A stretch of 64,000 bases of DNA from an uncultured Schleiferiaceae bacterium (lineage in GTDB: Bacteria; Bacteroidota; Bacteroidia; Flavobacteriales; Schleiferiaceae): contig CAXBBL010000010.1 of assembly GCA_963974215.1 (NCBI GenBank), positions 1 through 64,000 of the forward strand, written 5' to 3'. The translations under genes were made by a program, and so were the position numbers. Below are positions 20,631 through 36,199 of the stretch, one piece after another; within the stretch, counting starts at the first letter, position 1, and every line of letters begins with the position of its first letter. The notes beneath the pieces were generated by a model. The model saw only the letters and a program-made list of their open reading frames with translations. It ran no database searches and had not been told where the DNA came from.

Positions 20631-21449
20631 ATGAAGCGCTATTTTAAAGATAAAGATCAACGCAATGGACTGATTGGAACCCTAATTTTCCATAGCATCC
20701 TCTTTATTTTATTTCTTTTCCTAGGTCTTAGTTATTACGACCCCAAACCCGAAGCGGGCGTGCTTATTAATTTTGGTTATGCCGAAGACGGTTTTGGCCA
20801 AGAAGCGGTGGTAAGCAACGAAAGTCCCAGCACCACCAGCAGTACTTCCAATGCTGAAGAAAGTGTGCAAACCCAAGATTGGCAGGATGCGCCCAGCATA
20901 AGTGCCAGCGAGGAAAGCCAAAATAAAGAGGAAGAGGACAAGCCGGAAAAAACAGATACTCCCACAGAAACTCAAGAAGAAAAGCCCGTTGAAAAGCCGG
21001 ACCCTAAACCTTCCAATGCCCTTCAAAGTATTTTAGATAATACTAAAAACTCACAATCTGGTGGAGAAGGCGTAACCGAAGGTGGCGGCGATCAAGGTAA
21101 AGAAAATGGCGACCCTCGCTCCAGCAATCGCATTGGCGACGGCGGTGGTGGAGGCAATGGCGACGGAAACTATTTACTGGGAAACCGTCTCGCTTTAGCT
21201 AAACCCAAACCCAATTACCCCTGCAGCGATGAAGGTCGCGTGGTGGTGAAAATCTATGTAAACCAATCCGGAAAAGTTGTCCGAGCTATTGCGGGCGAAC
21301 GAATTCCAGGAGGAGCAGCCTCTACCACAACTAGCAGCTGTTTATACGAGCAGGCTAAAAAAGCCGCTATGCAAACCACCTGGGAAGCAGATGGCAGCGC
21401 ACCCGATCAACAATCTGGTTATATCGTTTATAATTTCAAAAGAACTTGA
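20631..21449 (+). CDS. TonB-family energy transducer (C-terminal TonB domain)
   Basis: 272 aa. N-terminal TM, an acidic/Pro-rich spacer, a Gly-rich segment and a C-terminal TonB_C-like domain (VVVKIYVNQSGKVVRA). Confidence 0.75.
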   Translation: MKRYFKDKDQRNGLIGTLIFHSILFILFLFLGLSYYDPKPEAGVLINFGYAEDGFGQEAVVSNESPSTTSSTSNAEESVQTQDWQDAPSISASEESQNKEEEDKPEKTDTPTETQEEKPVEKPDPKPSNALQSILDNTKNSQSGGEGVTEGGGDQGKENGDPRSSNRIGDGGGGGNGDGNYLLGNRLALAKPKPNYPCSDEGRVVVKIYVNQSGKVVRAIAGERIPGGAASTTTSSCLYEQAKKAAMQTTWEADGSAPDQQSGYIVYNFKRT

Positions 21450-22690
21450 GTCGTTATCAAGAAACGCTGGACTGGTTGTTTCAGCAATTACCCATGTATC
21501 AACGCGTGGGCAAAGTGGCTTACAAAGCCGATCTAAATAATACTATCGCCCTAATGAAACTTTTAGGGGAACCACAAAACTCCTTTAAAAGCATACATGT
21601 GGCGGGCACCAATGGGAAAGGTTCTTCTTCGCACATGTTGGCCGCCATTTTTCAGGCAGCTGGTTATAAAACCGGACTTTATACTTCACCCCATTTAGTA
21701 GATTTCCGAGAACGCATTCGGATAAATGGCGAGTGTATTGCCCCAGAAAAAGTTTGTGATTTTGTAGATAGCTATAAAGACAGTTTTAGTCAATTAGGAC
21801 TTAGCTTTTTTGAAATGACCGTTGGCCTTGCCTTTCATCATTTCCGCGAAGAAAAAGTTGACATTGCCATTATTGAAGTGGGTATGGGTGGTCGATTGGA
21901 TAGCACCAATGTTATTGATCCCCTAATCAGTTTAATCACCAATATTGGCTGCGACCATACTGAGTTTTTAGGTGATACCCTGGAAAAGATAGCAGTAGAA
22001 AAAGCTGGTATTATCAAGGCCAATAGGCCCGTGGTAATCAGTGAAATTCAAGCGGAAACCAAAGAAGTATTTAAGGCCAAAGCATACGAAGTATCGGCCC
22101 CAATTTATTTTGCACTGCAGGAAATCACCTATCAGCAAAGTAAATATAGCAGCGATTTAATTGGCAGATACCAAGCTAAAAACTTGCTGGGTGTCTTAAT
22201 GGTTATCCGTTTAGCTGAAAAACTAGGTTTCAATTTACAAGACCATATTCAAGAAGGATTAAGCTCCGTAACCAAGCTTACTGGTTTGCGCGGTCGCTGG
22301 GATATTATTCAAGAAAACCCATTAACCGTCTGCGATACGGGCCATAACGAAGCCGGAGTGCGCGAACTTATTGACCAAATTAAAAGCAATAGCTTCCGTC
22401 AACTTCATATGGTTTGGGGAATGGTGGGCGATAAGGACAGTAAAACAATTTTAAGTTTACTGCCCAAGAGTGCCATTTACTATTTCTGCGCGGCCTCTAT
22501 TCCTCGTGCGAAAGATGCCGATGCTTTAAAACAAGAAGCCTTAAAGCTTGGCCTTGCGGGCAAGAGCTATTCATCGGTAGAGGAAGCCTATCAGCAAGCG
22601 CAAAAAAACACCCATGCCGACGATTTCATATTTGTGGGAGGAAGCACCTTTGTGGTGGCCGATTTTTTAAAGTCCATCGACCAAATCTAA
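21446..22690 (+). CDS. folC: Bifunctional folylpolyglutamate synthase / dihydrofolate synthase
   Basis: 414 aa. P-loop HVAGTNGKGSS. Mur-ligase fold. The start appears to be TTG at 21446, overlapping the tonB TGA stop, so the start is uncertain. Confidence 0.85.
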   Translation: MSRYQETLDWLFQQLPMYQRVGKVAYKADLNNTIALMKLLGEPQNSFKSIHVAGTNGKGSSSHMLAAIFQAAGYKTGLYTSPHLVDFRERIRINGECIAPEKVCDFVDSYKDSFSQLGLSFFEMTVGLAFHHFREEKVDIAIIEVGMGGRLDSTNVIDPLISLITNIGCDHTEFLGDTLEKIAVEKAGIIKANRPVVISEIQAETKEVFKAKAYEVSAPIYFALQEITYQQSKYSSDLIGRYQAKNLLGVLMVIRLAEKLGFNLQDHIQEGLSSVTKLTGLRGRWDIIQENPLTVCDTGHNEAGVRELIDQIKSNSFRQLHMVWGMVGDKDSKTILSLLPKSAIYYFCAASIPRAKDADALKQEALKLGLAGKSYSSVEEAYQQAQKNTHADDFIFVGGSTFVVADFLKSIDQI

Positions 22691-22691
22691 A

Positions 22692-23384
22692 CTAAGCCAG
22701 GCTAGTCCACAAACGGCCAAATTCATTTTTAAAGCTGCGAATCAAACCTGCATCTTCTAATACTACAATGTTTTCGTAATTGCTGCTTGCCGCAGAACGG
22801 GTCCAATTATAACTGCCCGTTATTAAAAAGGCACTATCGAATAGGGCGAATTTGTGGTGCATATGCACTTTCGTGTGATCGGTTCTGAGCGGAATTCCCT
22901 TTTGATGCAGATAATCCACATCCGAGCCCATATCAAAAGCCTTATCATTATCGGTGATAATCCGCACTCGTAATCCTCGTTGATGCGCCGCCAAAATAGC
23001 CTCACTAATAATATCATCACTAATGGTGAAAACGCAGATATCTACAGAGGTTTTCGCGTTTGCCAGTTGATATAATATCGCATCTCTACACGCGTCGCCT
23101 GGACTAAAATAAGCGCGACCTTTAAATTCTTTACTCTCTCCGTTTGAGCCTAAAACTAATTTAGCTCCTTCGTAAAACCAGCTTAAAAGATGCTGCGATT
23201 CAGTATCAGCACTTGCTTCTAAAGCAAGATCTCTAAATTTACTCAGCAACCAAGAATTATTAGCATCATCAAAGTTTAATTCTTTTAGTAATGCCTTTAA
23301 ATCCCTTCGTTCTTGTCGCGATAAATATTGATCCTCTATCGAGCGCTCCATCTCCTCAAGAAGCTTGGCAATTTCAATTTTCAT
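22692..23384 (-). CDS. Phospholipase D-family protein with a single HKD motif (Nuc-like nuclease/phosphodiesterase)
   Basis: 230 aa. One HxKxxxxD motif (HMHHKFALFD) followed by GSYNWT. It is about half the size of a two-HKD cardiolipin synthase, and has a ~90-aa helical N-terminal extension. Confidence 0.75.
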   Translation of the reverse strand: MKIEIAKLLEEMERSIEDQYLSRQERRDLKALLKELNFDDANNSWLLSKFRDLALEASADTESQHLLSWFYEGAKLVLGSNGESKEFKGRAYFSPGDACRDAILYQLANAKTSVDICVFTISDDIISEAILAAHQRGLRVRIITDNDKAFDMGSDVDYLHQKGIPLRTDHTKVHMHHKFALFDSAFLITGSYNWTRSAASSNYENIVVLEDAGLIRSFKNEFGRLWTSLA

Positions 23385-23393
23385 AAGTCATTT

Positions 23394-24158
23394 TTATTTA
23401 GAAAGCTTCGAGATTTCACTTTTCAGTAGATCGATTTGCTCCTGAAAAGCACCTGCGCTGCTAATATTTTTAGTTATCACTTGCTCTATCTGCCACAAAT
23501 CTACTATCGCAGTGGGCGGGATTTCCTCTTGGTAATAATCACGTGAAGTAGCACTTATGCTTAATAGCTCTTTCTTAAGGCTCGTTAAACGACGTAGTTT
23601 CCAATCTTCAGCAGTTTCAAAAAGATAAATCTTCCCTTGCTCTGCCTTACTTAAGTTAAAGGAAGACTCCTTATAAGCGATTATAATATCACCCGCTCCA
23701 AAACCCACACCCTGCTCTAGCATGCTGTTATCTGCTAATTCAAAGGCCCGGTAATCTCCTCCCTTGGCTAGCGGTAAACTCAGCTGAGCCATTTGCAACA
23801 AGGCCTCACGGTCGGCTAGATATTCTGATTTTAAAAACTGGGTAATTAGCGGAATAGAGCGAAGACTGGGAGGGATTTTACTAGGGCGCAAGTTATGTTT
23901 TGCTCCTTTAATCAAATCCTTACGGAAGATATCGAAATGATAGAGATCATTTACTGACAAGTCCTTCTTTAGTAATTCATCCACCGAAATGCCAAAATGA
24001 TTAGCTATTTCTATAATGGTAGACAATTTCGGTTCCGCCCGACCTTCTTCATAAGCACCAATACTAGCTCTTTTAAGATTAAATAAGTCAGCAAAATCAC
24101 TCTGATTCAACCCTTTAACACCTCTAATCTTCTTAATGTTTTTTCCTATGCTTGACAT
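23394..24158 (-). CDS. HTH-XRE / S24 (LexA/CI-like) peptidase-domain transcriptional repressor
   Basis: 254 aa. N-terminal XRE helix-turn-helix (LNQSDFADLFNLKRASIGAYEEGRAEP). C-terminal S24-like Ser region ADNSMLEQGVGFGAGDIIIA with a downstream Lys. Forms an operon with the PLD gene. Confidence 0.75.
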   Translation of the reverse strand: MSSIGKNIKKIRGVKGLNQSDFADLFNLKRASIGAYEEGRAEPKLSTIIEIANHFGISVDELLKKDLSVNDLYHFDIFRKDLIKGAKHNLRPSKIPPSLRSIPLITQFLKSEYLADREALLQMAQLSLPLAKGGDYRAFELADNSMLEQGVGFGAGDIIIAYKESSFNLSKAEQGKIYLFETAEDWKLRRLTSLKKELLSISATSRDYYQEEIPPTAIVDLWQIEQVITKNISSAGAFQEQIDLLKSEISKLSK

Positions 24159-24187
24159 ATCTGCAAAAATTTATTGCTAATATTTTT

Positions 24188-24232
24188 GGCTAAACTAATT
24201 TTTTTAGTACTTTAGCCTTGTAAAACTAAAAA
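24188..24232. promoter_or_regulatory. Nested dyad symmetries in the divergent promoter region (candidate operator)
   Basis: ggctaaa(24188-94)/tttagcc(24211-17) and TTTTTAGT(24201-08)/ACTAAAAA(24225-32) are inverted repeats, with the palindrome AGTACT at the centre. Confidence 0.35.
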
Positions 24233-24348
24233 TATTATCATGAATTACTACAAAGAAGTTGAAAATCTTCCACCTCCACGGAAATTTGCATTATATTGAA
24301 AGCGTAAAACGCAGGAAAAAGAATACTAAATATTAAAACTTAAAATCA

Positions 24349-24744
24349 ATGACAAGCTATTTCGACAAGGTAAAATCATTTGTTCTAGACCTAGACCTTA
24401 GCATCGTATATCAAAACGAAGAGGAAGAAATTTTAGTAATTGAAGATGAGACTTCAGGTATTAGCAATTTGGTTTTAGCTTGTGCTGATCCGATTCTAAT
24501 TATGGAGCAATTTCTCTTCGAGCTAAAAAGCGACGATAAGGAAATCCTTAAAAACCTCTTAATAAAGAACCGCGACATTGTGCACGGTGCTTTTGCCCTA
24601 GACGAAAGTGGAAATCGCGTTATTTTCCGCGATACTTTACAAATCGAAAACCTTGACGCAAACGAATTAGAAGGGTCTATTAATAGCTTAGGCATGCTCT
24701 TAAGCGAATACTCCGACGAACTCATCAAATTTTCAAAACATTAA
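24349..24744 (+). CDS. YbjN/YjfI(DUF2170)-like small acidic protein
   Basis: 131 aa. Acidic. Sits immediately upstream of the pspA-family gene, as E. coli yjfI does relative to yjfJ. The call rests on size, composition and context, so it is tentative. Confidence 0.4.
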   Translation: MTSYFDKVKSFVLDLDLSIVYQNEEEEILVIEDETSGISNLVLACADPILIMEQFLFELKSDDKEILKNLLIKNRDIVHGAFALDESGNRVIFRDTLQIENLDANELEGSINSLGMLLSEYSDELIKFSKH

Positions 24745-24755
24745 AAAAAACAACA

Positions 24756-25484
24756 ATGAATATTTTAAGAAGACTTTTTAGCATCGGTAAAGCCGAAACC
24801 AATTCAGCTCTAGACAAACTGGAGGACCCTATTAAAATGACGGAGCAGGGTATCCGCGATTTAAAAATGGATTTAGACAAGGCACTGCACGCTTTGGCAG
24901 AAATCAAAGCGCTAAGCATTCGTGCTCGCAATGACCAAAGCAATTTCGAAAGCAAGGCTAAGGACTACGAAAAGAAAGCGATTATGCTGCTAGAACGCGC
25001 CGAAAAAGGCGACATGGAAATGGTGGAAGCAGAACGTCTTGCCAACGAAGCCTTAGTTAAGAAAAACGAAAACAAAGAACAGGCTCAACGCTCTTTAGCA
25101 GATAAAAACAAGTTCGATGGCAACATAAGCACCATGGAGTCGAATATCAAAAAACTTCGTCAGCAAATTAGTCAATACGAAAATGAGCTTAAAACCCTGA
25201 AAGCCAGAGTTAAAGTTAGCTCAGCAACTGTGAATATCAACAAGCAAATGTCTAAGATTGATGGCTCAGGTACCGTTAGCATGCTAGAGCGCATGAAAGA
25301 AAAAGTAGAGCAAGAAGAAGCGCTTGCTGAAAGCTACGGCGATATTGCCAATGAAAGCCGCTCGATTGATGAAGAAATCGACAAAGCCCTTGACGGCGCC
25401 AGCTCTAGCCAGGCCAGCGATGATCTAGCCGCATTAAAAGCACGCTTAGGCATGAACAAAGCCGACGACAGTAAAAGTGAATAA
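24756..25484 (+). CDS. pspA: PspA/IM30/Vipp1-family protein (bacterial ESCRT-III-like)
   Basis: 242 aa. N-terminal MNILRRLFSIGKAETNSALDKLEDPIKMTEQGIRDLKMDL is characteristic of the PspA/IM30 N-terminus. The whole length is coiled coil. Confidence 0.85.
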   Translation: MNILRRLFSIGKAETNSALDKLEDPIKMTEQGIRDLKMDLDKALHALAEIKALSIRARNDQSNFESKAKDYEKKAIMLLERAEKGDMEMVEAERLANEALVKKNENKEQAQRSLADKNKFDGNISTMESNIKKLRQQISQYENELKTLKARVKVSSATVNINKQMSKIDGSGTVSMLERMKEKVEQEEALAESYGDIANESRSIDEEIDKALDGASSSQASDDLAALKARLGMNKADDSKSE

Positions 25485-25494
25485 AAAATAAATC

Positions 25495-26139
25495 ATGAAC
25501 GAATTCCTTAATCTCATTTTCAACGGAGCCAATGCCATCCCCACGGGATTGCTCCTCTTCATCCTCCTTTATTGGATAATAGTAATTATTGGTCTTTTAG
25601 ATACCGAGTTTTTAGATTTCGATATCGACATTGATGGTGAAGCAGATTTTGAGATTGAGGGAGACGTCTCGGGCGATGTGTCTTGGTTAAATAATGTTCT
25701 CGTCTTTTTCAACCTCGGCCGCATCCCCTTTATGATTTGGCTAAGCTTTGTCAGCCTTCCGCTATGGCTGCTAAGCATTAACATCAATAACTTTTTAGGC
25801 ATCGAAAGCTTTATCTTCGGACTACTAAGTTTTATACCTCTGCTCTTTCTGAGCCTATTAATCTCTAAAGTGCTAACCACACCCTTCGTTCGCTTTTTCG
25901 AAAAATTAAATGAAGACAGTAAAAAGAAGGAAATTATTGGCAAAATAGGCACAGTTATCAGCCCTGCTTCCGACCTCAACAAAGGCATGGCCGAAATCAA
26001 CTATCAAGGCAGTTTTTTAAGACTCTATATCCGCAGTCCGAAAAGCCAGCCTGTACTTAAAGGTGAACAAGTGCTTTTTATTGAGAAGCTCGACGAACCA
26101 GGAGTTTACCTGGTAGAACCTCACCTCAGCATTAGCTAA
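25495..26139 (+). CDS. NfeD-like (YqiJ/YuaF-type) membrane protein with C-terminal OB-fold
   Basis: 214 aa. Multi-TM N-terminal half. C-terminal beta-rich segment GKIGTVISPASDLNKGMAEINYQGSFLRLYIRS...GEQVLFIEKLDEPGVYLVEP typical of the NfeD C-terminal domain. Directly precedes the flotillin gene. Confidence 0.65.
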   Translation: MNEFLNLIFNGANAIPTGLLLFILLYWIIVIIGLLDTEFLDFDIDIDGEADFEIEGDVSGDVSWLNNVLVFFNLGRIPFMIWLSFVSLPLWLLSININNFLGIESFIFGLLSFIPLLFLSLLISKVLTTPFVRFFEKLNEDSKKKEIIGKIGTVISPASDLNKGMAEINYQGSFLRLYIRSPKSQPVLKGEQVLFIEKLDEPGVYLVEPHLSIS

Positions 26140-26165
26140 AAACCAATCATTCTTTAATTCTCTTT

Positions 26166-28346
26166 ATGGAAATTTTTCAGCAAACCTACATGGTGATAAT
26201 CATTGTAGCCGTAGTTCTAATTTTCGGGATTATCGCCATGTTCTCCCGCTTCTATTACAAAACCTCCCAAGGCCAAGCTTTAGTTAAAACCGGTGTGGGT
26301 GGTATAAAAGTGTCCTTCAATGGCATGATGGTCATTCCTGTTCTTCACAAAGTGGAGATTATGGACATCTCTTTAAACACCATTACCATCGACCGCAAAG
26401 GCAAAGATGGCCTAGTGTGTAAAGACAACCTACGCGCCGATATAAACGTGGCCTTTTACGTACGCGTTAACGAAATGGTAGACGACGTAAAACGCGTTGC
26501 CCAATCCGTAGGCTGCAGCCGCGCCTCTTCTAAAGAAGCCTTGCGCTTACTTTTTGACGCTAAGTTTTCGGAAGCCTTAAAAACCGTAGGTAAAAAATTC
26601 GACTTCGTTGATTTATACAACCAGCGCGATGAGTTTAGAAGAGAGATTATTGACATTATTGGCACCGACCTAAATGGCTATGTCCTTGACGATGCCGCCA
26701 TCGACTTCCTAGAGCAAACTCCTCTAGAATCTTTGGATCCCAATAATATTTTAGATGCGGAAGGGATTAAAAAGATTACCGAAATCACTGCGAGAGAAGC
26801 GGTTAAAGCCAACTTCATTCAGCGTGATAAGGAAAAGGTAATTAAGCAACAAGATGTTGAAGCCCGCGAAGCAATCTTGGTTTTAGAAAGGCAATTAGCT
26901 GAAAGCGAAGAAAAACAGAAACGCGAAATAGCTAATGTTAAGGCGCGCGAAGAAGCGGAAATTGAAAAAGTAAACCAAGAGGAAAAACTCAAATCGGAAA
27001 GAGCTCGAATTGCTACCGAGGAAGAAATTGAGGTAAGCGAGCAAAATAAAGAGCGCCAAGTAATTGTGGCCGCCAAAAATAAAGAGCGCACCGAAGTTGT
27101 AGAAACGGAAAGAGTTGAAAAAGACCGTCAGCTAGAAGCTACAGAACGCGAACGCATTGTTACGCTTACGCAAATAGAAAAACAAAAAGCGATTGAAACC
27201 GAACAGAAAAACATTCAAGAAGTAATTCGTGAGCGGGTAGCCATTGAGAAAACTGTGGTAGATGAAGAAGAGCGCATCAAAGACACCCGTGCTTTCGCAG
27301 AAGCGGAAAGACTAAAAAGAGTGTCTATTACTAAAGCCGAAGAAGAAGCAGAAGCTTCACTGGTGCAAGAAATTAAAAAGGCGGAAGCCGCTAAATCAGC
27401 CGCTGAGTTTGGTGCCAAGCAGAAAATCATTGATGCCGATGCTGAACAACAAAGCTCGGTGCAAAAAGCAGAAGCCATTAAAGTTTTAGCCGAAGCCGAA
27501 GCCTCTCGTTTTGCCGCAGCAGGATTAGCCGAAGCCCGTGTATTAGAAGCCAAAGCCCAAGCGCGCGAGAAACAAGGGGAAGCAGAAGCTTCTGTTATTG
27601 AAGATCAAGCGATTGCTGAGGCACGCGGTATTGAAGCGAAGAGTTTAGCCCAAGCGGAAGCCGATTTAAGAATTGGTAAATCAGCCGCAGAAGTTAATCA
27701 AGCCACTGGCTTAGCCGAAGCGGAAGTAATTCGCAAGAAAGCGGAAGCGGAAAAAGAAAAAGGTCTAGCCGAAGCGCTAGTGAATTTGGAAAAAGCATCT
27801 GCGGAAGCGGAAGGAATTGACCGCAAAGCTAAAGCCATGAAAACCTTGAATGATGCTGGTAAAGATCACGAAGAGTTTAAACTACGTCTCGATAAAGACA
27901 AATCGGTAGAATTAGCTGGTATTCATATCCAGAAAGATATTGCCGATGCCCAAGCTCAAGTTTTATCAGAAGCATTACGCAGTGCTAAAATTGATATCGT
28001 TGGGGGTGAAAACGTCTTCTTCGACAAGATAGTAGGCGCCATCACTTCTGGAAAATCTATGGACCGTCGCATTGATAACTCGGTCGTATTTACCCAAGTG
28101 AAAGATCAGCTTCTTAATGACCCATCTGGCGCAAGCCTACTAGAAAAAGTACGGGGTATTGTAAAAGAATCGGGCATTAGTACCGAGGACCTTAGAAACC
28201 TTAGTGTGGCTTCTTTCCTTACCCGACTCATTAATAGTACCGACGATAGCAAGAAGCGCAGCGTGCTGGAACAAATGCTGAATTTTGCCAAACAAAACAA
28301 TTTGAGCAATAGCAGCGCTGACGATTTTGGCATCATCGAAGACTAA
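26166..28346 (+). CDS. Flotillin/SPFH (band-7, YqiK-like) protein with an extended Ala/Glu-rich coiled-coil
   Basis: 726 aa. N-terminal TM plus SPFH domain (VKTGVGGIKVSF...VIPVLHKVEIMDISLNTITI), then ~450 aa of AEA/EAE-rich repeats. Antisense ORFs 26456..26665, 26819..27091, 27215..27553 and 28106..28336 are repeat artefacts. Confidence 0.85.
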   Translation: MEIFQQTYMVIIIVAVVLIFGIIAMFSRFYYKTSQGQALVKTGVGGIKVSFNGMMVIPVLHKVEIMDISLNTITIDRKGKDGLVCKDNLRADINVAFYVRVNEMVDDVKRVAQSVGCSRASSKEALRLLFDAKFSEALKTVGKKFDFVDLYNQRDEFRREIIDIIGTDLNGYVLDDAAIDFLEQTPLESLDPNNILDAEGIKKITEITAREAVKANFIQRDKEKVIKQQDVEAREAILVLERQLAESEEKQKREIANVKAREEAEIEKVNQEEKLKSERARIATEEEIEVSEQNKERQVIVAAKNKERTEVVETERVEKDRQLEATERERIVTLTQIEKQKAIETEQKNIQEVIRERVAIEKTVVDEEERIKDTRAFAEAERLKRVSITKAEEEAEASLVQEIKKAEAAKSAAEFGAKQKIIDADAEQQSSVQKAEAIKVLAEAEASRFAAAGLAEARVLEAKAQAREKQGEAEASVIEDQAIAEARGIEAKSLAQAEADLRIGKSAAEVNQATGLAEAEVIRKKAEAEKEKGLAEALVNLEKASAEAEGIDRKAKAMKTLNDAGKDHEEFKLRLDKDKSVELAGIHIQKDIADAQAQVLSEALRSAKIDIVGGENVFFDKIVGAITSGKSMDRRIDNSVVFTQVKDQLLNDPSGASLLEKVRGIVKESGISTEDLRNLSVASFLTRLINSTDDSKKRSVLEQMLNFAKQNNLSNSSADDFGIIED

Positions 28347-28359
28347 ACAAAAGCCAACT

Positions 28360-28389
28360 AGAGCGCGTCTTACGGCGCGCTCTTTCTAA
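28360..28389 (+). terminator. GC-rich hairpin after the flotillin gene (weak T-tract)
   Basis: agagcgcg (28360-67) pairs with cgcgctct (28376-83) around an 8-nt loop, followed by ttct. It may only partly terminate before the 1638-aa gene. Confidence 0.45.
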
Positions 28390-28419
28390 ATAAAATCAAC
28401 CGCTTCAAGCTAATTTTGT

Positions 28420-31400
28420 ATGGCTCAAGAAAATCAAGAAGTAAATATTGAAATAGGTAGTTATGAAGTAATTCGTGACCGATTGCGTAATCATTCTGCC
28501 GATTTACAAGAGCGTTTACAACGCTTAAACGCGGCGCGCAAAGACGTTTTCGGAGCCACCGAAACCAAGCTGAAAGCAACGGAAAGAATTAGCACGGAAA
28601 ACAACTGCCTAGCCCGTGATATTATTCCTATCGGCGACAATTATTTTTGGTTCGGCTATAATGTACACATGGGCCTGAAAAGCGAAACCCATGTAAATGA
28701 TGTTTTTAGCACCTATCAGTTTCAGGAGGAAAGCCAAAACTTTAAGCTCTGTGAATCCACACTGCTTAATAATGAGCAGTTTTTACTAGACTTTGCCAAT
28801 CTATACCAATATTACCGCGAAACGGTTTTTAGCAAATTTGCCCGCATCGGCAATGCCATCTTTATGGTGTTTCGAGTAGGAAAAAGCGCTAATGATATTA
28901 AAACTTTCAAATGGTCGCTTATTGATGGTAAATATCAATACGCCGGCAACCGTAGTGACCATGAATTTAAATACCCTCAACAGCACGAATTCACTTGGGA
29001 AAAGGTCAGCCGCGATATGCATCGCAAAGGTTTACACCCTCACATCTCTATCAAGGATCGCGTTTTTATTGAAACTACCGGTGGCGATCTTACGCTAAAA
29101 ATTGAAGACAATACCGATACGGGTAAAGGCATTTACAGCGAACCCGTTGAAGACAAAGACCAAACGCTAGATGACGCGGAAATTTACTTTGCCATTATTG
29201 GCAACCTCATCGCTCTTAAAGTAAAACCCTACCAAGAAAAGGATTTTCGCTACATAGTATATAATGAGAAAATTCAAGCCTGTGCTCGCATGGACGCCTT
29301 GGAAGATTCTTGTGTTCTACTGCCCGATAACCAGGGGATCATTTTCGCCAAGGGTTATTATATCCAAACGGGGGAAGTGAAGCTCTTCGATATTCAGCTC
29401 AACAATATGCTTTTTGAGCGGAAAATAGCCTCTCAAAATGGCGAGGATTACCTCTATATCTTTTATCAAGCCGAAAGTGGTATTTATATTTTACTGAATT
29501 ATAACATTATAGATCAGAAGGTTGCCACGCCTATAATTTGCAATGGCTATACGCTATTTGAAAGCGGCGAACTTATTTTCTTTAAGGCCGAAGAGGAACA
29601 AAAAAGAGTACATCTCATCCAAATTTGGCAAACCCCCTTCTACTCGCCTAACCACGTGGTCGAAGCCCAAAGCGATTCCTACCTTTATAAAATTGGCAAT
29701 AAGGAAATTGTGCGTTTGATGAGCGAATGCAGTGAACTAATTAAGCTAATTGGCAAAGATGATCGCTACGCAAATTTATACACCGATTTAAGCAAGCAAA
29801 GTACTGGCATTATCGATGCCTACCATTGGATTAACCATGCCGAAGTAGAACAGATCTCCAAACCCATTGAAGCCATAAAAAGCACAGCCACTGCAGCCAT
29901 TGATGAATACGAGAAGGTTCTAAAAATTAAAGCCCATACAGCAGCGGAAAGTGCGAGCGTAATGGGAGAAGCCCATAAAGCCATTTCTAAAATAAAAAAT
30001 AGTCAGGCTAAAAATATTGACGAATACGTTAATCGCCTTGCCCTGCTGAGAGAGAATAAAGGGAAAGTAATTGCCTTAAAAGATCTGCGCTACAGCGACC
30101 TTACCGCCATTGAAGCCTTAGAAACTGAGCTAAGTGCGGTGAACGATCAATTATCGAAAGCCACTCTGAATTACCTTCTTCGCAAGGAAGCGCTAGAACC
30201 TTATGAATTAAAAACGGAAAAACTTAAGCAGGAGCTTGACCAAGCTAAAAAAGTAACAGAGCTTAATCGCTTAGCAGAAGACATTGTCCAAATTTCAGCT
30301 GAGCTCGACCTCTTGATTGAAATCGTAGGTAATTTAAAAATTGACGATGCCACTCAGTCGGTTAAAATCATTGACGCCATTTCTACGCTCTATGCGCAGT
30401 TTAACCGCATCAGCGCTCAGCTTAAAAACCGTAAAAAAGAATTACTTAGTCTCGAAGGCGAAGCAGAGTTTAAGTCACAAATAAAACTCATCAACCAAGG
30501 CCTTACCAATTACCTCAACTTGGCTGATTCAGCCGAAAAGTGCGATGAATACCTCAATAAGTTGATGGTACAGCTGGAGGAATTGGAAGCGAAATTCGCA
30601 GCCTTTGATGAGTTTATAGAAATCATTGCCGAAAAAAGGGAAGAGCTTTACAGTGCTTTTGACTCGAAGAAAGTTCAACTAAATGAAGCCTTAAACAAAC
30701 AAACGCTTAGTCTACAAAAATCGGGCGGTCGCATCATTAACGGCATCCAAAAAAGGCTAGCCAAGCTTAAGAACGAAGGCGAAATGCGCACCTTCTTTGC
30801 TAGCGATTTAATGATTGAAAAAGTACGTGGCATCGCCGAACAACTTTTATCATTAGGCGATTCGGTGAAAGCCGATGACCTTCTTAGTCAGTTAAAAACC
30901 AGCTACGAAGATGCCCTAAGACAAAGCAAAGACAAGCAGGAACTTTTTGTAAAGGGCGAAAATATCATTCAACTGGGCAAGCATCAGTTTAATGTAAACA
31001 CCCAAAGCATCGACCTCAGCATTGTTTATAAAGACGAGAATCTTTACTACCATATTAGTGGCACTAACTTTTTTGAAGCCTTGCAATCTGAGGCCGTTGA
31101 AGCAACCCGCAGCGTGTGGGACCAAAGCCTGAAAAGTGAAAATGCCCAAGTCTATCGCGCTGAGTATTTAGCTTATCACCTTTTTCTGGAAGCTCAACAT
31201 GGCCAGAACGAGGAAGAAACTAAAACTCTGGAAGAATTGCATCTTCTTAATGACAGCGATTTACAGGAATACGTGCAGCTTAAAATGGGCCGTAAATACG
31301 ATGAAGGTTATGTAAAAGGCGTGCACGATAAAGACGCTATGCTCATTTTAAAAGCCTTACTGAAACTTCATTTTAGCATCGGACTTTTACGTTATAGTAG

Positions 31401-33336
31401 CAATGCGAGATGCCTCGCCTACTTATTTTGGAAACGCGAAATATCGAGCGAACTGCGTGAAAAATGGGAAGAGAATATGCGTATTATTCGCAGCATTCTA
31501 AAAATATTTCCTCAAAGTAAAAGCTTCGTAAACAGTATTGCCGAGCTAAAAAATGATATTCAATCCCTTCCGCTTCAGCTAGATTGGGTAGATGACAAAG
31601 CACAAGAAGATGCCGCTCATTACCTATTCCATCTTTTAAGTTCAGAGCAAAAGCTAGCCTTTTCCCTCTCCGCTTGGGATTTAAGTGAGCAGTTTGAATT
31701 ACACCTAAAAAAGAACCGCTGGACCAAAGACTATGAATTGTCTTTGAAAAACGAAAAAGGCAATAAAGGAAAGAGCTTTCAAACGATCCTATCTTGGCTT
31801 AAAGCCTACCAAAACCAAGGGACAAGCAAGCCCTTTTCGGAAGAGGTAATGCGCGAGGCCAGCGTCCTTTTAATGGATAAAACGCTTGCGCTAGATGAGC
31901 ATCAAAAAGTGATACTCTCCGAAAAAATAGAAGGACTAGAAGGAGAGCACCCGTCTCTTGAAAAAGGACAAACAATGCTTCACTACCCGCATTTTATGGA
32001 GAAGCTGCATCGATTTAAAAGCACCACGGTGCAGGATTTTCTGCGCTTTCAAAAATTGAAAAAGGATTTACTAGCAGCCCAGAAAAAGGAATTACGCTTA
32101 CAAGAATTCAAACCCAAGGTGATGAGTTCTTTTGTTCGCAACCAATTATTGGATGAAGTTTATCTGCCTTTAATCGGCGATAACCTTGCCAAGCAAATGG
32201 GCGCTGCGGGTGCCAATAAACGTACCGATCTAATGGGAATGCTTTTACTCATTTCCCCCCCAGGTTATGGTAAGACTACCTTAATGGAATATATCGCCAA
32301 CCGTTTGGGATTGGTTTTTATGAAAATAAACGGTCCTGCTATTGGTCATGAAGTTACCGCTATTGACCCTTCGGTAGCGCCAAATTCTGCAGCACGTGAA
32401 GAACTGGAAAAACTAAACCTCGCATTTGAGATGGGCGATAATGTTATGATCTATATCGATGATATTCAGCATTGTAATCCCGCATTTTTGCAGAAATTTA
32501 TTTCACTCTGCGACGCGCAACGCAAAATAGAAGGCATCTACAAAGGTGTAAGCAAAACTTACGATTTCCGTGGCCGAAAAGTGGCAGTCGTAATGGCGGG
32601 GAACCCCTATACCGAAAGTGGCGATAAGTTTCAAATTCCCGATATGCTATCCAACCGAGCCGATATTTACAACCTCGGAGATATTATAGGCGGCAAGGCC
32701 GAAGCCTTTGAAAATAGCTATTTAGAAAACAGCCTGAGCAGTAATCCTAGCATTGCAAAACTGAAAGATCAAAACAGCAAAGACTTCAAAATATTGGTCC
32801 AAGCGATTGAAAGTGGCGACACCAGTCAGATAAGTTTAGAAGGAAAGCACAGTGGAGAAGAAATAAAAGAATACCTTCAGATTTTGCAGAAAATGCTAAG
32901 ATTGAGAGCGGTAATTTTAAAAGTAAACAAACAGTACATTCTTTCGGCTGGACAAGCGGAAGAGTATAGAACGGAACCTCCATTTAAACTGCAAGGCTCT
33001 TACCGCGATATGAATAAAATGGTAGAGAAACTGAGTCCGATAATGAATGAAGAAGAGTTAGAAACCTTAATCCTTTCGCATTATGAAAACGAATCGCAAA
33101 GTTTAAGCTCGGCGGCAGAATTCAATTTCTTAAAACTGAAGGAACTCTTGGATTTAATGAGCGAAGACGAGAAAAAAAGAAAAGAAGAAATCCTTGCAGT
33201 GTTTAGCCGACAACAAAAAATGAAGAGTTTCGGTGGTAATCAAATTGCACCGATTATAGAACAAATGGAGCGAGCAGGAATTGCCTTAGATGAATTAGTA
33301 AAGATTTTTCAAGGACCCACAAACCTGCCTAAATAA
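28420..33336 (+). CDS. Giant three-part protein: N-terminal globular region, ~600-aa coiled coil, C-terminal MoxR-type AAA+ ATPase
   Basis: 1638 aa. Walker A LLISPPGYGKTTLMEYIANRLG. Walker B, sensor and arginine region VMIYIDDIQHCNPAFLQKFISLCDAQ ... VAVVMAGNPYTESGDKFQIPDMLSNRAD. These match the MoxR/AAA_3-AAA_5 pattern (GPPGxGKT; DEINRAxPxxQSALLEAM; ATQNP...P.AxLDRF). Residues ~470-1100 are heptad-rich helical. Small nested ORFs such as 28801..29022 and 30916..31149 are spurious. Confidence 0.85.
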   Translation: MAQENQEVNIEIGSYEVIRDRLRNHSADLQERLQRLNAARKDVFGATETKLKATERISTENNCLARDIIPIGDNYFWFGYNVHMGLKSETHVNDVFSTYQFQEESQNFKLCESTLLNNEQFLLDFANLYQYYRETVFSKFARIGNAIFMVFRVGKSANDIKTFKWSLIDGKYQYAGNRSDHEFKYPQQHEFTWEKVSRDMHRKGLHPHISIKDRVFIETTGGDLTLKIEDNTDTGKGIYSEPVEDKDQTLDDAEIYFAIIGNLIALKVKPYQEKDFRYIVYNEKIQACARMDALEDSCVLLPDNQGIIFAKGYYIQTGEVKLFDIQLNNMLFERKIASQNGEDYLYIFYQAESGIYILLNYNIIDQKVATPIICNGYTLFESGELIFFKAEEEQKRVHLIQIWQTPFYSPNHVVEAQSDSYLYKIGNKEIVRLMSECSELIKLIGKDDRYANLYTDLSKQSTGIIDAYHWINHAEVEQISKPIEAIKSTATAAIDEYEKVLKIKAHTAAESASVMGEAHKAISKIKNSQAKNIDEYVNRLALLRENKGKVIALKDLRYSDLTAIEALETELSAVNDQLSKATLNYLLRKEALEPYELKTEKLKQELDQAKKVTELNRLAEDIVQISAELDLLIEIVGNLKIDDATQSVKIIDAISTLYAQFNRISAQLKNRKKELLSLEGEAEFKSQIKLINQGLTNYLNLADSAEKCDEYLNKLMVQLEELEAKFAAFDEFIEIIAEKREELYSAFDSKKVQLNEALNKQTLSLQKSGGRIINGIQKRLAKLKNEGEMRTFFASDLMIEKVRGIAEQLLSLGDSVKADDLLSQLKTSYEDALRQSKDKQELFVKGENIIQLGKHQFNVNTQSIDLSIVYKDENLYYHISGTNFFEALQSEAVEATRSVWDQSLKSENAQVYRAEYLAYHLFLEAQHGQNEEETKTLEELHLLNDSDLQEYVQLKMGRKYDEGYVKGVHDKDAMLILKALLKLHFSIGLLRYSSNARCLAYLFWKREISSELREKWEENMRIIRSILKIFPQSKSFVNSIAELKNDIQSLPLQLDWVDDKAQEDAAHYLFHLLSSEQKLAFSLSAWDLSEQFELHLKKNRWTKDYELSLKNEKGNKGKSFQTILSWLKAYQNQGTSKPFSEEVMREASVLLMDKTLALDEHQKVILSEKIEGLEGEHPSLEKGQTMLHYPHFMEKLHRFKSTTVQDFLRFQKLKKDLLAAQKKELRLQEFKPKVMSSFVRNQLLDEVYLPLIGDNLAKQMGAAGANKRTDLMGMLLLISPPGYGKTTLMEYIANRLGLVFMKINGPAIGHEVTAIDPSVAPNSAAREELEKLNLAFEMGDNVMIYIDDIQHCNPAFLQKFISLCDAQRKIEGIYKGVSKTYDFRGRKVAVVMAGNPYTESGDKFQIPDMLSNRADIYNLGDIIGGKAEAFENSYLENSLSSNPSIAKLKDQNSKDFKILVQAIESGDTSQISLEGKHSGEEIKEYLQILQKMLRLRAVILKVNKQYILSAGQAEEYRTEPPFKLQGSYRDMNKMVEKLSPIMNEEELETLILSHYENESQSLSSAAEFNFLKLKELLDLMSEDEKKRKEEILAVFSRQQKMKSFGGNQIAPIIEQMERAGIALDELVKIFQGPTNLPK

Positions 33337-33347
33337 AGAATATTTAG

Positions 33348-33926
33348 ATGGAGAATCAATTTTACCAAACTGAAGAATCGGTAGCAGAGTACATTGCAGC
33401 GGCCCAAGATATTAATGGGAGAAGCCTAATTGAAAAATTAAAAAAGCATCTCCCGCAAGGATCTTTGTTGCTTGAAATTGGCTCAGGCCCTGGTAGCGAT
33501 TTTCAAATTTTAAAAGAAGTGTACCGCTCGGTCGGCTCAGATTTTTCCGTTGAATTCATACGCCTGCTCAAGCTTCGCTTTCCCCAAGATGAATTTTTAA
33601 ACTTGAATGCGGTAAGTTTGGACACTACGCGTAAATTCCAAGGCCTTTACTCCAATAAGGTTCTGCATCATCTGCACGAAGAAGAGCTAAAAAAGTCCAT
33701 CTTGCGACAAGCAGATTTACTGGAATCAGACGGAATTATCTGCCATTCTTTTTGGAAAGGCGAAGGGAATGAGAACTTTAAGGGGCTGCTTGTGAGCTAC
33801 TATAGTGCTGAAAATCTAACGCTTCTTTTTCAAGATCACTTTAAAATCATTACGCTAGAGGAATATGAAGAATTTGAAACTGGAGATTCACTTTTACTAA
33901 TTGCTAAGAAAAAAGACCAGTCCTGA
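33348..33926 (+). CDS. Class I SAM-dependent methyltransferase (small)
   Basis: 192 aa. Motif I LLEIGSGPGSDF. Motif post-I/II pattern with acidic residues downstream. Confidence 0.7.
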   Translation: MENQFYQTEESVAEYIAAAQDINGRSLIEKLKKHLPQGSLLLEIGSGPGSDFQILKEVYRSVGSDFSVEFIRLLKLRFPQDEFLNLNAVSLDTTRKFQGLYSNKVLHHLHEEELKKSILRQADLLESDGIICHSFWKGEGNENFKGLLVSYYSAENLTLLFQDHFKIITLEEYEEFETGDSLLLIAKKKDQS

Positions 33927-33974
33927 TCGCCTGGCTAACTAAATTACTTGAAAACTTAAAAACGAAAACATAAA

Positions 33975-34523
33975 ATGAGTCTATTTAAAAATCTTTTTGG
34001 TAAAAAAGAAGAAGAACCAAAACCCTTCAGTCGCACCGTTCTAGACCTAAGCATGGGTTATATTTTCGAATATGATTTACGCACTTGGGAAGTTACTGGC
34101 GAATACGAATACGACTGGGGCGATGAAGAATTTAGCAAAGAATACAAGGTTTCCGATGGTAAGGACAGCTTTTACCTTTCGGTAGATGAGGACGACGAAA
34201 TAGAATTGCTCTGGTGTGAAAAAGTACCTATGCGCAAACTAGGAGCGGAAATCGCCAAAAATATAAGCGATGGCTCAGCCCCACCCGAAACCATAATTTA
34301 CAAGGGTAAAAGCTATTTCCTAGATGAAGAATCGCCGGGCTATTTTAACGACATGACCAAAAGTAAAAACGACGATTGGCAAGAATTCATCGCTTGGGAC
34401 TACTATAACGAAGATGAAACTTTAAATTTGACCATTGAACAATGGGGCGAACGTTCCTTCGAGGCATCTTGGGGGAAGGTAATCTCCGAATTCGAAATTT
34501 CTGATATTCTTCCAAGAAAATAA
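33975..34523 (+). CDS. DUF4178-like protein
   Basis: 182 aa, soluble, acidic and Trp/Tyr-rich (YIFEYDLRTWEVTGEYEYDWGDEEF...FYLSVDEDDEIELLW). Fits my recollection of the DUF4178 family, which is often clustered with DUF350 and spermidine-synthase-like genes. Assigned from memory without an HMM. Confidence 0.45.
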   Translation: MSLFKNLFGKKEEEPKPFSRTVLDLSMGYIFEYDLRTWEVTGEYEYDWGDEEFSKEYKVSDGKDSFYLSVDEDDEIELLWCEKVPMRKLGAEIAKNISDGSAPPETIIYKGKSYFLDEESPGYFNDMTKSKNDDWQEFIAWDYYNEDETLNLTIEQWGERSFEASWGKVISEFEISDILPRK

Positions 34524-34528
34524 GAACC

Positions 34529-35296
34529 ATGCGCATCTATCATTATCTCAGTCTTTTAGCAAGCTTATTTTTAATTAGCGCTTGCGGACCTAATACCCCG
34601 GTTTACGAGAAAAACCCCATCGACGATTTAGTAAAAAAAATGACTGAAGTGCCGAACTACAGCATTATGCTTTACGACATGAACTACGATGAGAGTAGCG
34701 AAAAGTATTTGCATCAGTATCGCATCTTAAAAGAAGACAGCTTCAACGACACCTTAGTTTCAGAAACTACCGATTGGCTGCAAGTGAGCGACAGCTATTT
34801 CAATAGCAATATCGACAATATGGGCATGGCGCTTATCACTAAAGTAGATGGGAAAGTGGAAAAGAAAGTAGCACCTCCTGGTTATAATAATTATGTTGGC
34901 AACGAGAAGTACGGAAAATGGAACCAAGGTTCGGATGGCAATAGCTTTTGGGAATTCTACGGCAAATACGCCATGCTGCGTTCCGTTTTAGGTTACGGTA
35001 TGTCCCCTATTTACCGTGGCGGCTGGAACGATTATCGTCGCAATTATTATCCCTCGGGCAGAACCTATTACGGTAATAACTCCAACGGTGGCACTCGCTT
35101 TGGCACTAATGGCAGCCACACCAGCAATCGGAGCAGTCGCTCTACTTGGAACAGCAAACCCACTACCTTCAAACAAAATGTGCGCAGCAAAGTACAACGC
35201 AGTAGCAGCCGTACAAGCAGCAGAAACTCACGTTCCTCTTCACGCTATCGCAGCAGTTCTAGCAGTCGAGGACGCGGATTTGGTGGTGGAAAATAA
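34529..35296 (+). CDS. Lipoprotein with C-terminal Arg/Ser/Gly-rich low-complexity tail
   Basis: 255 aa. Lipobox LISACG. The last ~90 aa are NRSSRSTWNSK...RSSSRTSSRNSRSSSRYRSSSSSRGRGFGGGK. Overlapping ORFs 34988..35197(-) and 35016..35300(+) are codon-repeat artefacts. Confidence 0.7.
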   Translation: MRIYHYLSLLASLFLISACGPNTPVYEKNPIDDLVKKMTEVPNYSIMLYDMNYDESSEKYLHQYRILKEDSFNDTLVSETTDWLQVSDSYFNSNIDNMGMALITKVDGKVEKKVAPPGYNNYVGNEKYGKWNQGSDGNSFWEFYGKYAMLRSVLGYGMSPIYRGGWNDYRRNYYPSGRTYYGNNSNGGTRFGTNGSHTSNRSSRSTWNSKPTTFKQNVRSKVQRSSSRTSSRNSRSSSRYRSSSSSRGRGFGGGK

Positions 35297-35316
35297 TTAA
35301 GCAAAACAATAGCAAT

Positions 35317-36198: not shown

Positions 36199-36199
36199 A

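Follow-up and report, generated by a model that had tools for sequence, protein, structure and literature searches.

A regulator gene divergent from a PspA gene cluster

The window analysed here is a stretch of 64,000 nucleotides (nt) from an uncultured Schleiferiaceae bacterium (a marine Bacteroidota metagenome-assembled genome; contig CAXBBL010000010.1), in which the gene for a helix-turn-helix (HTH) regulator, here called REG, and a gene for a single-HKD protein of the PLD family, here called PLD, face a long series of plus-strand genes that includes the gene for PspA (Table 1). Both open reading frames and the 190-bp AT-rich divergent region have the coordinates given in an earlier note drawn up from the sequence alone, which had also described the pair as facing a YbjN/PspA cluster; that series does begin at 24349. 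With only 9 nt between the REG stop codon and the PLD start, co-transcription of the two as a two-gene operon, as the note had assumed, is likely.

One genome per GTDB species was scanned for relatives of REG, which yielded more than 551 loci, and the neighbouring genes of the best 80 were identified by tblastn with the window proteins. All 80 loci come from Bacteroidota genomes, spanning Flavobacteriales (Cryomorphaceae, Schleiferiaceae, Aquimarina, Leeuwenhoekiella, Nonlabens and Tenacibaculum), Cytophagales (Cyclobacteriaceae, Roseivirgaceae and Fulvivirga), Hymenobacteraceae (Hymenobacter, Pontibacter and Rufibacter) and other groups. REG is divergent from a CesT/YbjN-like gene and the PspA gene in 77 of these loci, and about 58 of the 80 also hold the YqiJ-like, flotillin-like (726-aa) and DUF3686 genes. 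Because this adjacency is kept across Bacteroidota, REG is most likely the dedicated regulator of the PspA cluster. The pairing, together with the conserved operator-like sites between the genes (see below), makes control of the divergent supercluster by the regulator, a possibility raised in the earlier note, very probable.

The cluster reproduces a gene set described in 2024 (PMC11237479), whose operon-describing passages include the type "CesT/Tir-PspA + band-7/flotillin + novel AAA+ + YqiJ/YuaF" and remark on an HKD hydrolase in such operons of some Proteobacteria: the window has the CesT-like, PspA, YqiJ-like, long flotillin-like and DUF3686 AAA+ genes along with the optional HKD hydrolase. 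Those passages name no regulator, and LexA and S24 occur nowhere in the text of that paper; PspA is not mentioned in the study of Bacteroidetes non-canonical LexA proteins discussed below (PMC8565304), and literature searches on XRE-type regulation of PspA in Flavobacteria were negative. REG, with an operator sequence, is here nominated for the regulator role that those passages leave unassigned, and such a widely conserved candidate makes envelope-stress sensing in Bacteroidota directly testable. The PspF, LiaRS and ClgR systems of other bacteria are not known from Bacteroidota.

Table 1 Features of the REG locus and of the divergent gene cluster (positions within the window)
Feature	Position	Strand	Basis and remarks
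REG (regulator gene)	23394..24158	minus	open reading frame, 254 aa
XRE/Cro-type HTH, REG residues 8-62	23973..24137	minus	Pfam HTH_3 PF01381, 1.8e-11
LexA/CI-type (S24-like) beta domain, residues about 100-228, catalytically degenerate	23475..23861	minus	AlphaFold2 strands, fold matches
Ser111-Glu112, scissile-bond position	23823..23828	minus	Ala-Gly in 1/159 family members, 8/8 references
Ser145 (in DNSM), nucleophile position	23724..23726	minus	alignment
Arg189, general-base Lys position	23592..23594	minus	alignment
C-terminal alpha helix, REG residues 237-253	23400..23450	minus	AlphaFold2; aligned with published non-canonical LexA
PLD gene	22692..23384	minus	open reading frame, 230 aa
HKD motif H176-x-K178-x4-D183, then G190-S191-x-N193	22836..22859 (HKD)	minus	invariant in 55 homologues
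Divergent control region	24159..24348		190 bp, 25% G+C; plus-strand cluster on the opposite side, from 24349
Predicted operator site 1, CTAATTTTTTTAG	24195..24207		perfect CTAA-N5-TTAG; 37-49 nt upstream of REG start codon
Predicted operator site 2, CCAAAAATATTAG	24177..24189	minus	CCAA-N5-TTAG; 18 nt start-to-start from site 1
Operator-like site 3, ATAATATTTTTAG	24226..24238	minus	one mismatch; 31 nt from site 1, other side
Candidate REG promoter, TAGTTTTAC	24220..24228	minus	TAnnTTTAC box like Bacteroidetes -7 element; ~20 nt upstream of site 1
Presumed target operon	24349..37744	plus	Pfam and gene gaps; ten genes, gaps <=73 nt
CesT_Tir_1/YbjN-like gene	start 24349	plus	Pfam CesT_Tir_1, 4e-54
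PspA gene	start 24756	plus	Pfam PspA_IM30, 4e-38
YqiJ-like gene	start 25495	plus	weak YqiJ_N match
Putative flotillin-like gene, 726 aa	26166-28346	plus	
DUF3686 AAA+ gene, 1638-aa protein	start 28420	plus	Pfam DUF3686, 4e-185
Small methyltransferase gene	33348-33926	plus	
DUF4178 gene	start 33975	plus	
Gene for 255-aa protein	start 34529	plus	
DUF350 gene	start 35317	plus	
Membrane spermine-synthase-like gene	start 36200	plus	

A predicted LexA/CI-type fold without the complete cleavage set

The XRE HTH that the earlier note had read in the regulator was recovered by Pfam, with Lys29 and Ala31 at the start of the recognition helix. An AlphaFold2 model of REG (mean pLDDT 86) comprises a five-helix HTH, a flexible linker predicted with low confidence (residues about 75-99), a beta domain (100-228) and a C-terminal helix (237-253). 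Foldseek comparison of this model with the PDB placed lambda CI at the top (3bdn, 2e-7), with phage 186 CI (2fjr and 7jvt) and several LexA structures (including 3k2z, 5e-6, and 1jhf, 3e-4) next, a ranking from which we assign REG a LexA/CI-like fold. At the sequence level, Pfam Peptidase_S24 (PF00717) gave no match to REG at E <= 0.01, and comparisons with NCBIfam and with PDB sequences returned HTH matches only. Many of the 881 REG homologues found carry a precomputed PF00717 match, and a 79-sequence family profile matched residues 111-182 of E. coli LexA marginally (E about 0.05). Since direct sequence searches gave only the HTH, the S24 relationship is visible only via homologues, family profile and predicted fold. 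The S24 self-cleaving peptidase domain of the earlier note is thus upheld as a predicted fold shared with PF00717-bearing homologues, and not as a Pfam match or as a bearer of the self-cleavage residues.

These residues were compared in an alignment of 159 family members (REG, 78 database and 80 genomic homologues) with eight references, namely E. coli LexA, lambda CI and six C-terminal domains from PMC8565304 (Data S5). REG aligns with the reference domains end to end at about 20% identity, and the blocks that it shares with non-canonical LexA are LP..G.YRAFE-x-x-x-S-M, W-(Q/E) and the terminal helix. Judged by this alignment and by the model, REG is a predicted homologue of the Bacteroidetes non-canonical LexA, with the same succession of XRE HTH, LexA/CI-type beta domain and terminal helix. 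The nucleophile column, Ser in all eight references, is occupied in the family by Glu (76), Ala (33), Ser (26) or Asp (14), and the general-base column, Lys in all eight, by Arg in 137 members (86%) and by Lys in 8. The complete set of Ala-Gly, Ser and Lys occurs in none of the 159, which is why we regard the REG family as a catalytically degenerate paralogue of non-canonical LexA and RecA-triggered self-cleavage of REG as unlikely.

On the reading that the earlier note had put forward as a possibility, REG would be a functional S24 autoprotease that RecA* inactivates after DNA damage, making PLD, and perhaps the whole cluster, inducible by the SOS response. In line with this are the S24-like fold, the homologues with PF00717, the presence of Ser145, a predicted operator equal to the SOS box of Bacteroidetes non-canonical LexA, a PLD core whose nearest matches are the nucleases Nuc, NucT and Zucchini, and Pfam's own label for DUF3686, "ATPase involved in DNA repair". 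Yet the scissile position holds Ser111-Glu112 rather than Ala-Gly or Cys-Gly, the Lys is replaced by Arg189, and the full set that no family member has is found in all published non-canonical LexA proteins. REG also falls under the Pfam S24 threshold, the genes conserved next to REG are of the PspA, flotillin-like and YqiJ-like kinds and not SOS genes, and the 64-kb window contains three CTAA-N5-TTAG matches against 5.6 expected, none of them upstream of a repair gene. Autocleavage on RecA* signalling therefore finds no support here, and we consider this reading very unlikely.

Two REG-type proteins, one from Reichenbachiella sp. (P0100) and one from Rufibacter roseus (P0109, WP_074988429.1), bear the NCBI name "LexA family transcriptional regulator". 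Both align with G-S-E-M at the Ser position and R-R at the Lys position, so that the function implied by the name has probably been lost. The non-canonical LexA family appears to hold a large paralogous branch that has lost autoproteolysis, some members of which carry this LexA name in RefSeq, and caution is warranted for SOS-regulon predictions made from CTAA-N5-TTAG sites or from counts of LexA homologues.

Directly after the HTH, REG residues 66-80 (nt 23919-23963) form a motif, (E/D)LSVNDLYxFDIF, that is near-invariant in the family, with N70 invariant and L72, F75, D76 and I77 each conserved in at least 90%. Situated outside both folded domains, this motif is a candidate protein-protein contact.

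Conserved operator-like dyads in the control region

The divergent control region contains three sites (sites 1 to 3 in Table 1) related to CTAA-N5-TTAG, a motif whose binding by non-canonical LexA has been shown by electrophoretic mobility shift assay (PMC8565304). The same study lists CCAA-N5-TTAG variants as autoregulatory sites of true non-canonical LexA and describes a large SOS regulon of Hymenobacteraceae that runs via CTAA-N5-TTAG. The position of site 1 is also occupied by a site in close relatives of the window, and the TTAG half of site 3 is invariant among relatives.

The spacer between REG and the YbjN-like gene could be extracted in 78 loci, with 200 dinucleotide-preserving shuffles as the control. 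At least one perfect CT[AC]A-N5-T[GT]AG was found in 65 of the 78 spacers (shuffle mean 1.3, maximum 5), and 27 have a pair of sites exactly 18 nt apart (0.04 in shuffles). Distances from the REG start are fixed, at -49/-31 in the relatives of the window, -51/-33 in Hymenobacter and -92/-60/-18 in Flavobacteriaceae. Compared with three relatives whose REG proteins are 87, 76 and 69% identical (L087:2811-3000, L088:2810-3000 and L089:2810-3000), the 190-bp spacer of the window (24159-24348) shows 92% column identity, which means that the spacer DNA is more conserved than the flanking gene (69-87%). In these close relatives the half-sites are invariant and the N5 spacers variable. Also conserved in the spacer are a G-rich block, CCGTGGAGGTGG (24270-24281, minus strand), and the 35 nt beside the YbjN-like start codon.

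The half-sites vary with the recognition helix. Of 110 half-sites at loci whose REG has Lys29, 109 have A as their third base. Where the helix carries Ala29/Pro31, C takes this position in 71 of 116 half-sites, and the Hymenobacter REG loci have CTCA-N5-TGAG throughout. Such covariation between dyad and recognition helix is what a cognate protein-operator pair would show. In Hymenobacteraceae, the shift of the REG sites to CTCA/TGAG could provide insulation from cross-talk with LexA.

The inverted repeats that the earlier note had singled out in this region (GGCTAAA/TTTAGCC, TTTTTAGT/ACTAAAAA and a central AGTACT) are literally present, but they are not kept as dyads in the relatives with 69-87% identical REG, where all three change without compensation; they look like by-products of the tandem CTAA-N5-TTAG dyads. 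It is these conserved dyads, which the note had not named, that we predict to be the real operators.

A box like the candidate REG promoter of the window (TAnnTTTAC) lies 58-72 nt upstream of the REG start in 43 of the 78 loci. Should this box be the REG promoter, the early transcribed region would include sites 1 and 2, an arrangement that fits autorepression. Two TTG/TAnnTTTG candidates picked by eye for the PspA side (24181-24188 and 24281-24288) were rejected, as they are not conserved in relatives. Scans for sigma70-type promoters, which are the wrong promoter type for Bacteroidota, and for terminators gave counts at or below shuffle expectation, and Rfam had no match in 24159-24348.

An additional site with one mismatch, either CTCAAAAAAGTAG or CTCAAAAAAATAG, precedes the REG start by about 116 nt in Hymenobacter loci (L009-L036 and others). 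This extra Hymenobacteraceae site, which has no equivalent in the window, is only about 30-40 nt ahead of the YbjN-like start codon and would be well placed for repressing the PspA-side promoter directly.

Similar sites occur inside the REG coding sequence. A perfect CTAATATTTTTAG at 23461-23473 (coding for T-K-N-I-S) precedes the PLD start codon by 77 nt, and a one-mismatch CCAAAATGATTAG at 23992-24004 codes for A-N-H-F-G. The former might be an operator specific to PLD, but C-terminal sites like it are also present in loci without PLD and coincide with a conserved peptide; at the place of the latter (nt 154 of the coding sequence), 25 of 80 homologues have a perfect site. Both sites could be genuine operators within the gene or by-products of peptide conservation.

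A PLD-family enzyme, probably an optional accessory

The reading of the second gene as encoding a single-HKD PLD-family protein was confirmed, with a Pfam PLDc_2 match (1.7e-30) and intact HKD and GSxN motifs; in the 55 homologues compared, the first ~80 residues also contain invariant positions (D18, E25 and W69). The closest PDB sequences are human and mouse PLD6 (MitoPLD/Zucchini; 1.3e-29), followed by Nuc (3.7e-16) and NucT, with 34% identity to the core of mouse PLD6. The AlphaFold2 model (pLDDT 88.8) has an N-terminal four-helix domain (residues 2-79) ahead of the PLD core, and Foldseek matched it to mouse Zucchini (1.5e-14, TM 0.80), Nuc (1e-12, TM 0.86) and NucT. Inspection of the sequence revealed no signal peptide or membrane anchor. 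A nuclease is a reasonable assignment by homology and predicted fold; the substrate may be nucleic acid or a cardiolipin-type lipid, as both activities have been claimed among the homologues.

The PLD family is large (5127 matches at E <= 1e-10), and PLD is found downstream of REG, within about 1.5 kb and mostly adjacent, in 11 of the 80 loci, in several families. A Burkholderiales metagenome-assembled genome encodes a full-length orthologue (47% identical) as the last gene of a DUF2170(CesT-like)-PspA-...-692 aa-ZnR-DUF3686 operon, a placement that matches the remark on an HKD hydrolase in proteobacterial operons in PMC11237479. From these varied yet recurrent contexts we take PLD to be an optional accessory of the PspA/flotillin/AAA+ system, which in the window reads as sitting under the regulator's own promoter. 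The recurrence adds to the genomic evidence that links a Zucchini/MitoPLD-type HKD enzyme with a bacterial ESCRT-III-like system, as a second and independent case.

The earlier note had compared the pair with mobile, defence-type modules, and REG and PLD could in principle be such a self-contained module, a repressor guarding a toxic nuclease, with the adjacency to PspA incidental. The tight coupling of the two genes (9 nt), a cytoplasmic Nuc-like enzyme without signal peptide that could be toxic, and weak PADLOC matches to the PLD proteins DrmC, Mko and DpdK and to HTH control proteins all point that way. However, REG pairs with CesT-PspA in 77 of 80 loci and with PLD in only 11, the PLD family by itself occupies varied chromosomal contexts, and the flanks are housekeeping genes (FolC, TonB/ExbBD) common to relatives, with no integrase or transposase near the REG-PLD pair. 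When 50,697 phage records were searched with REG by tblastn, only HTH-length matches appeared, covering at most 28% of the protein; the PADLOC matches were only generic PLD and HTH ones, the NCBIfam scores for DrmC (27.9 bits, cut-off 133) and DpdK (24.1, cut-off 100) are far under their cut-offs, and the neighbourhood contains no DISARM or Dpd partner genes. With a syntenic chromosomal locus across Bacteroidota and negative phage and defence models, a mobile or defence module is most improbable. The observation of a regulator in the earlier note is real, and far better than chance, while its mechanistic reading (autoprotease, RecA*, defence) is mostly unsupported.

A probable dedicated, non-cleaving regulator of envelope maintenance

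We consider it probable that REG is a chromosomal, non-cleaving transcription factor dedicated to the Bacteroidota PspA/flotillin/AAA+ envelope-maintenance supercluster, with PLD as an optional member of its regulon. By sequence and model, it appears to share ancestry with non-canonical LexA, keeping the XRE HTH, the CTAA-N5-TTAG grammar, the LexA/CI-type beta domain and the terminal helix. The beta domain and helix would presumably serve dimerisation or oligomerisation only, or partner binding. REG dimers would bind the tandem dyads at 24177-24238, for which motif and conservation were computed, and would thereby regulate both the REG-PLD transcript and the divergent ten-gene cluster; since LexA, CI and non-canonical LexA offer the analogy, repression is the likelier mode. 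Relief without autoproteolysis might come from a partner protein (PspA or the CesT-like protein, comparable to the PspA-PspF pair), from an antirepressor, as with Tum and phage 186 CI, or from another protease cutting the flexible linker. The signal would be envelope or membrane stress rather than DNA damage. PLD, for its part, would be an optional regulon member, a cytoplasmic phosphodiesterase of the Nuc/Zucchini/MitoPLD type with a family-specific N-terminal helical domain.

Several points weigh against this interpretation. The loci behind the synteny and covariation counts are not phylogenetically independent. Ser145 is kept in the window's own clade, where it may allow residual or alternative chemistry, and a true non-canonical LexA acting on the same CTAA-N5-TTAG sites would make the cluster indirectly responsive to DNA damage. 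PLD accompanies the flotillin-like gene in 11 of 58 loci against 0 of 14 loci without that gene, a difference that is suggestive only (one-sided Fisher p = 0.075), and in four of five other sampled genomes it lies in unrelated contexts. Furthermore, the window sites are closer to REG than to the YbjN-like start codon, from which they lie 110-170 nt away, and no promoter for the PspA-side operon could be assigned in the spacer; for these reasons the predicted operators could mainly serve autoregulation. As that promoter is not placed, repression as opposed to activation of the PspA side is something that we infer.

This geometry would also fit an upstream activating position, with three sites clustered by the REG promoter-like box, and REG might act on the PspA-side operon mainly as an activator or in a dual mode, with autorepression confined to its own promoter. 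The strong constraint on the entire 190-bp region is compatible with such a role, and PMC8565304 states that activation cannot be excluded for the non-canonical LexA family. On the other hand, the extra Hymenobacteraceae site stands at a typical repressor position relative to the YbjN-like start, and the characterised relatives (LexA, CI at lytic promoters and non-canonical LexA) are chiefly repressors. Parallels for activation are lambda CI at PRM, ClgR for the actinobacterial psp operon and PspF in Proteobacteria. We regard a mainly activating or dual role as unlikely.

The interpretation of REG as a dedicated, non-cleaving regulator can be taken further, into a scheme that we hold to be possible, if doubtful. 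REG would be a pseudo-peptidase of the LexA superfamily that signals envelope stress and whose dead S24 domain forms a docking module together with the terminal helix. When the membrane is stressed, a component of the PspA/CesT-like/flotillin/AAA+ machinery would capture this module and thereby free the operators, and the co-regulated PLD would remodel cardiolipin or phosphatidic acid where repair takes place. If true, REG would be the first LexA-superfamily pseudo-peptidase to sense envelope stress, through a partner switch analogous to PspA-PspF, and the cluster would encode a bacterial membrane-repair unit made of ESCRT-III (PspA), a Vps4-like AAA+ protein and PLD.

Comparison with known systems

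The closest described proteins are the Bacteroidetes non-canonical LexA (Sanchez-Osuna et al. 2021, PMC8565304), which combine an XRE/CI-type HTH, an S24 domain and a terminal helix without known function, bind GGA-N5-TCC or CTAA-N5-TTAG, and are stated to conserve Ala-Gly and Ser-Lys in both groups. REG resembles them in the XRE/CI-type HTH, the S24-type beta domain, the extra terminal helix, the restriction to Bacteroidota and the presence, ahead of its own gene, of a CTAA-N5-TTAG dyad with CCAA and CAAA among the variants. It differs in that its family lacks the conserved Ala-Gly, Ser and Lys, with Arg for Lys in 86%, and in that its conserved partner is the PspA/flotillin/AAA+ cluster instead of SOS genes. 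In Hymenobacteraceae the two further diverge in their sites, CTAA-N5-TTAG for the true LexA and CTCA-N5-TGAG for the REG paralogue with its Ala29/Pro31. None of the accessions and sites in Tables S8-S10 of PMC8565304 could be matched to the loci analysed here, though REG paralogues may already have been part of that data set.

Like LexA and lambda CI (MEROPS S24), REG has a two-domain architecture and the corresponding C-terminal fold (3bdn, 3k2z and 1jhf), and dimer binding to dyads and autoregulation are likewise presumed for it; unlike them, it lacks the scissile bond and the Ser-Lys dyad, and RecA* autocleavage is not expected. The HTH of LexA is moreover winged, whereas that of REG is of the XRE type. 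The CI protein of phage 186, among the best fold matches of REG (2fjr and 7jvt), is a repressor that uses its LexA-like C-terminal domain for oligomerisation; it is inactivated by the antirepressor Tum and is not known to be inactivated by self-cleavage. That protein is, in contrast to REG, a phage immunity repressor with different operators, and no antirepressor gene was identified at the REG locus. Another parallel is IrvR of Streptococcus mutans (PMC7101444), a member of the LexA-like superfamily with an XRE HTH that stands outside the RecA paradigm and responds to non-SOS stress; IrvR, unlike REG, still autocleaves, belongs to Firmicutes and has unrelated target genes.

As for PspA regulators, the REG gene shares with PspF/PspA of Proteobacteria and ClgR of Actinobacteria a position divergent from or adjacent to pspA, with a shared control region. 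PspF is a sigma54 AAA+ activator restrained by PspA. ClgR has a Cro/XRE-type HTH like that of REG, but no S24-like domain, and neither PspF nor ClgR uses CTAA-N5-TTAG, the motif of the REG loci. The window PLD, finally, has one HKD per chain and invariant H-x-K-x4-D and G-S-x-N motifs, as do Nuc, NucT and Zucchini/MitoPLD. In place of the signal peptide of Nuc/NucT or the membrane anchor of MitoPLD it has a cytoplasmic N-terminal four-helix domain, and its family, unlike Nuc, NucT and Zucchini, recurs with PspA-flotillin-AAA+ operons.

Composition of the cluster and flanking genes

The 726-aa protein of the cluster is 54-79% identical among Bacteroidota orthologues, and gave no Pfam-A match (E <= 0.01) and no PDB sequence match (E <= 1); it may be a band-7 protein, and we use the flotillin-like label as a putative one. 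A second operon type appears in the operon-describing passages of PMC11237479, CesT-PspA-DUF4178-DUF350-7TM spermine synthase. The presence of DUF4178, DUF350 and spermine-synthase genes downstream indicates that the two PspA operon types are fused in the window, merged into one ten-gene same-strand array (24349-37744) with the methyltransferase gene (33348-33926) at their junction.

The locus has a natural variant on metagenome contig Ga0306912_1000236 (L088:1-3774), which shares the FolC/TonB/ExbD flank and encodes a REG of 76% identity. PspA is directly followed there by DUF4178, a 254-aa gene and DUF350, with PLD and the YqiJ-like/726-aa/DUF3686/methyltransferase block jointly absent.

On the other side of the pair, a FolC-like gene (21446..22690, plus) is convergent with the PLD gene (22692..23384, minus). 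As their ends are 1 nt apart, a terminator would not fit in between, and no terminator-like hairpin was detected there. Identical-protein clusters from Tara and NCBI metagenome assemblies carry the annotation "hypothetical protein".

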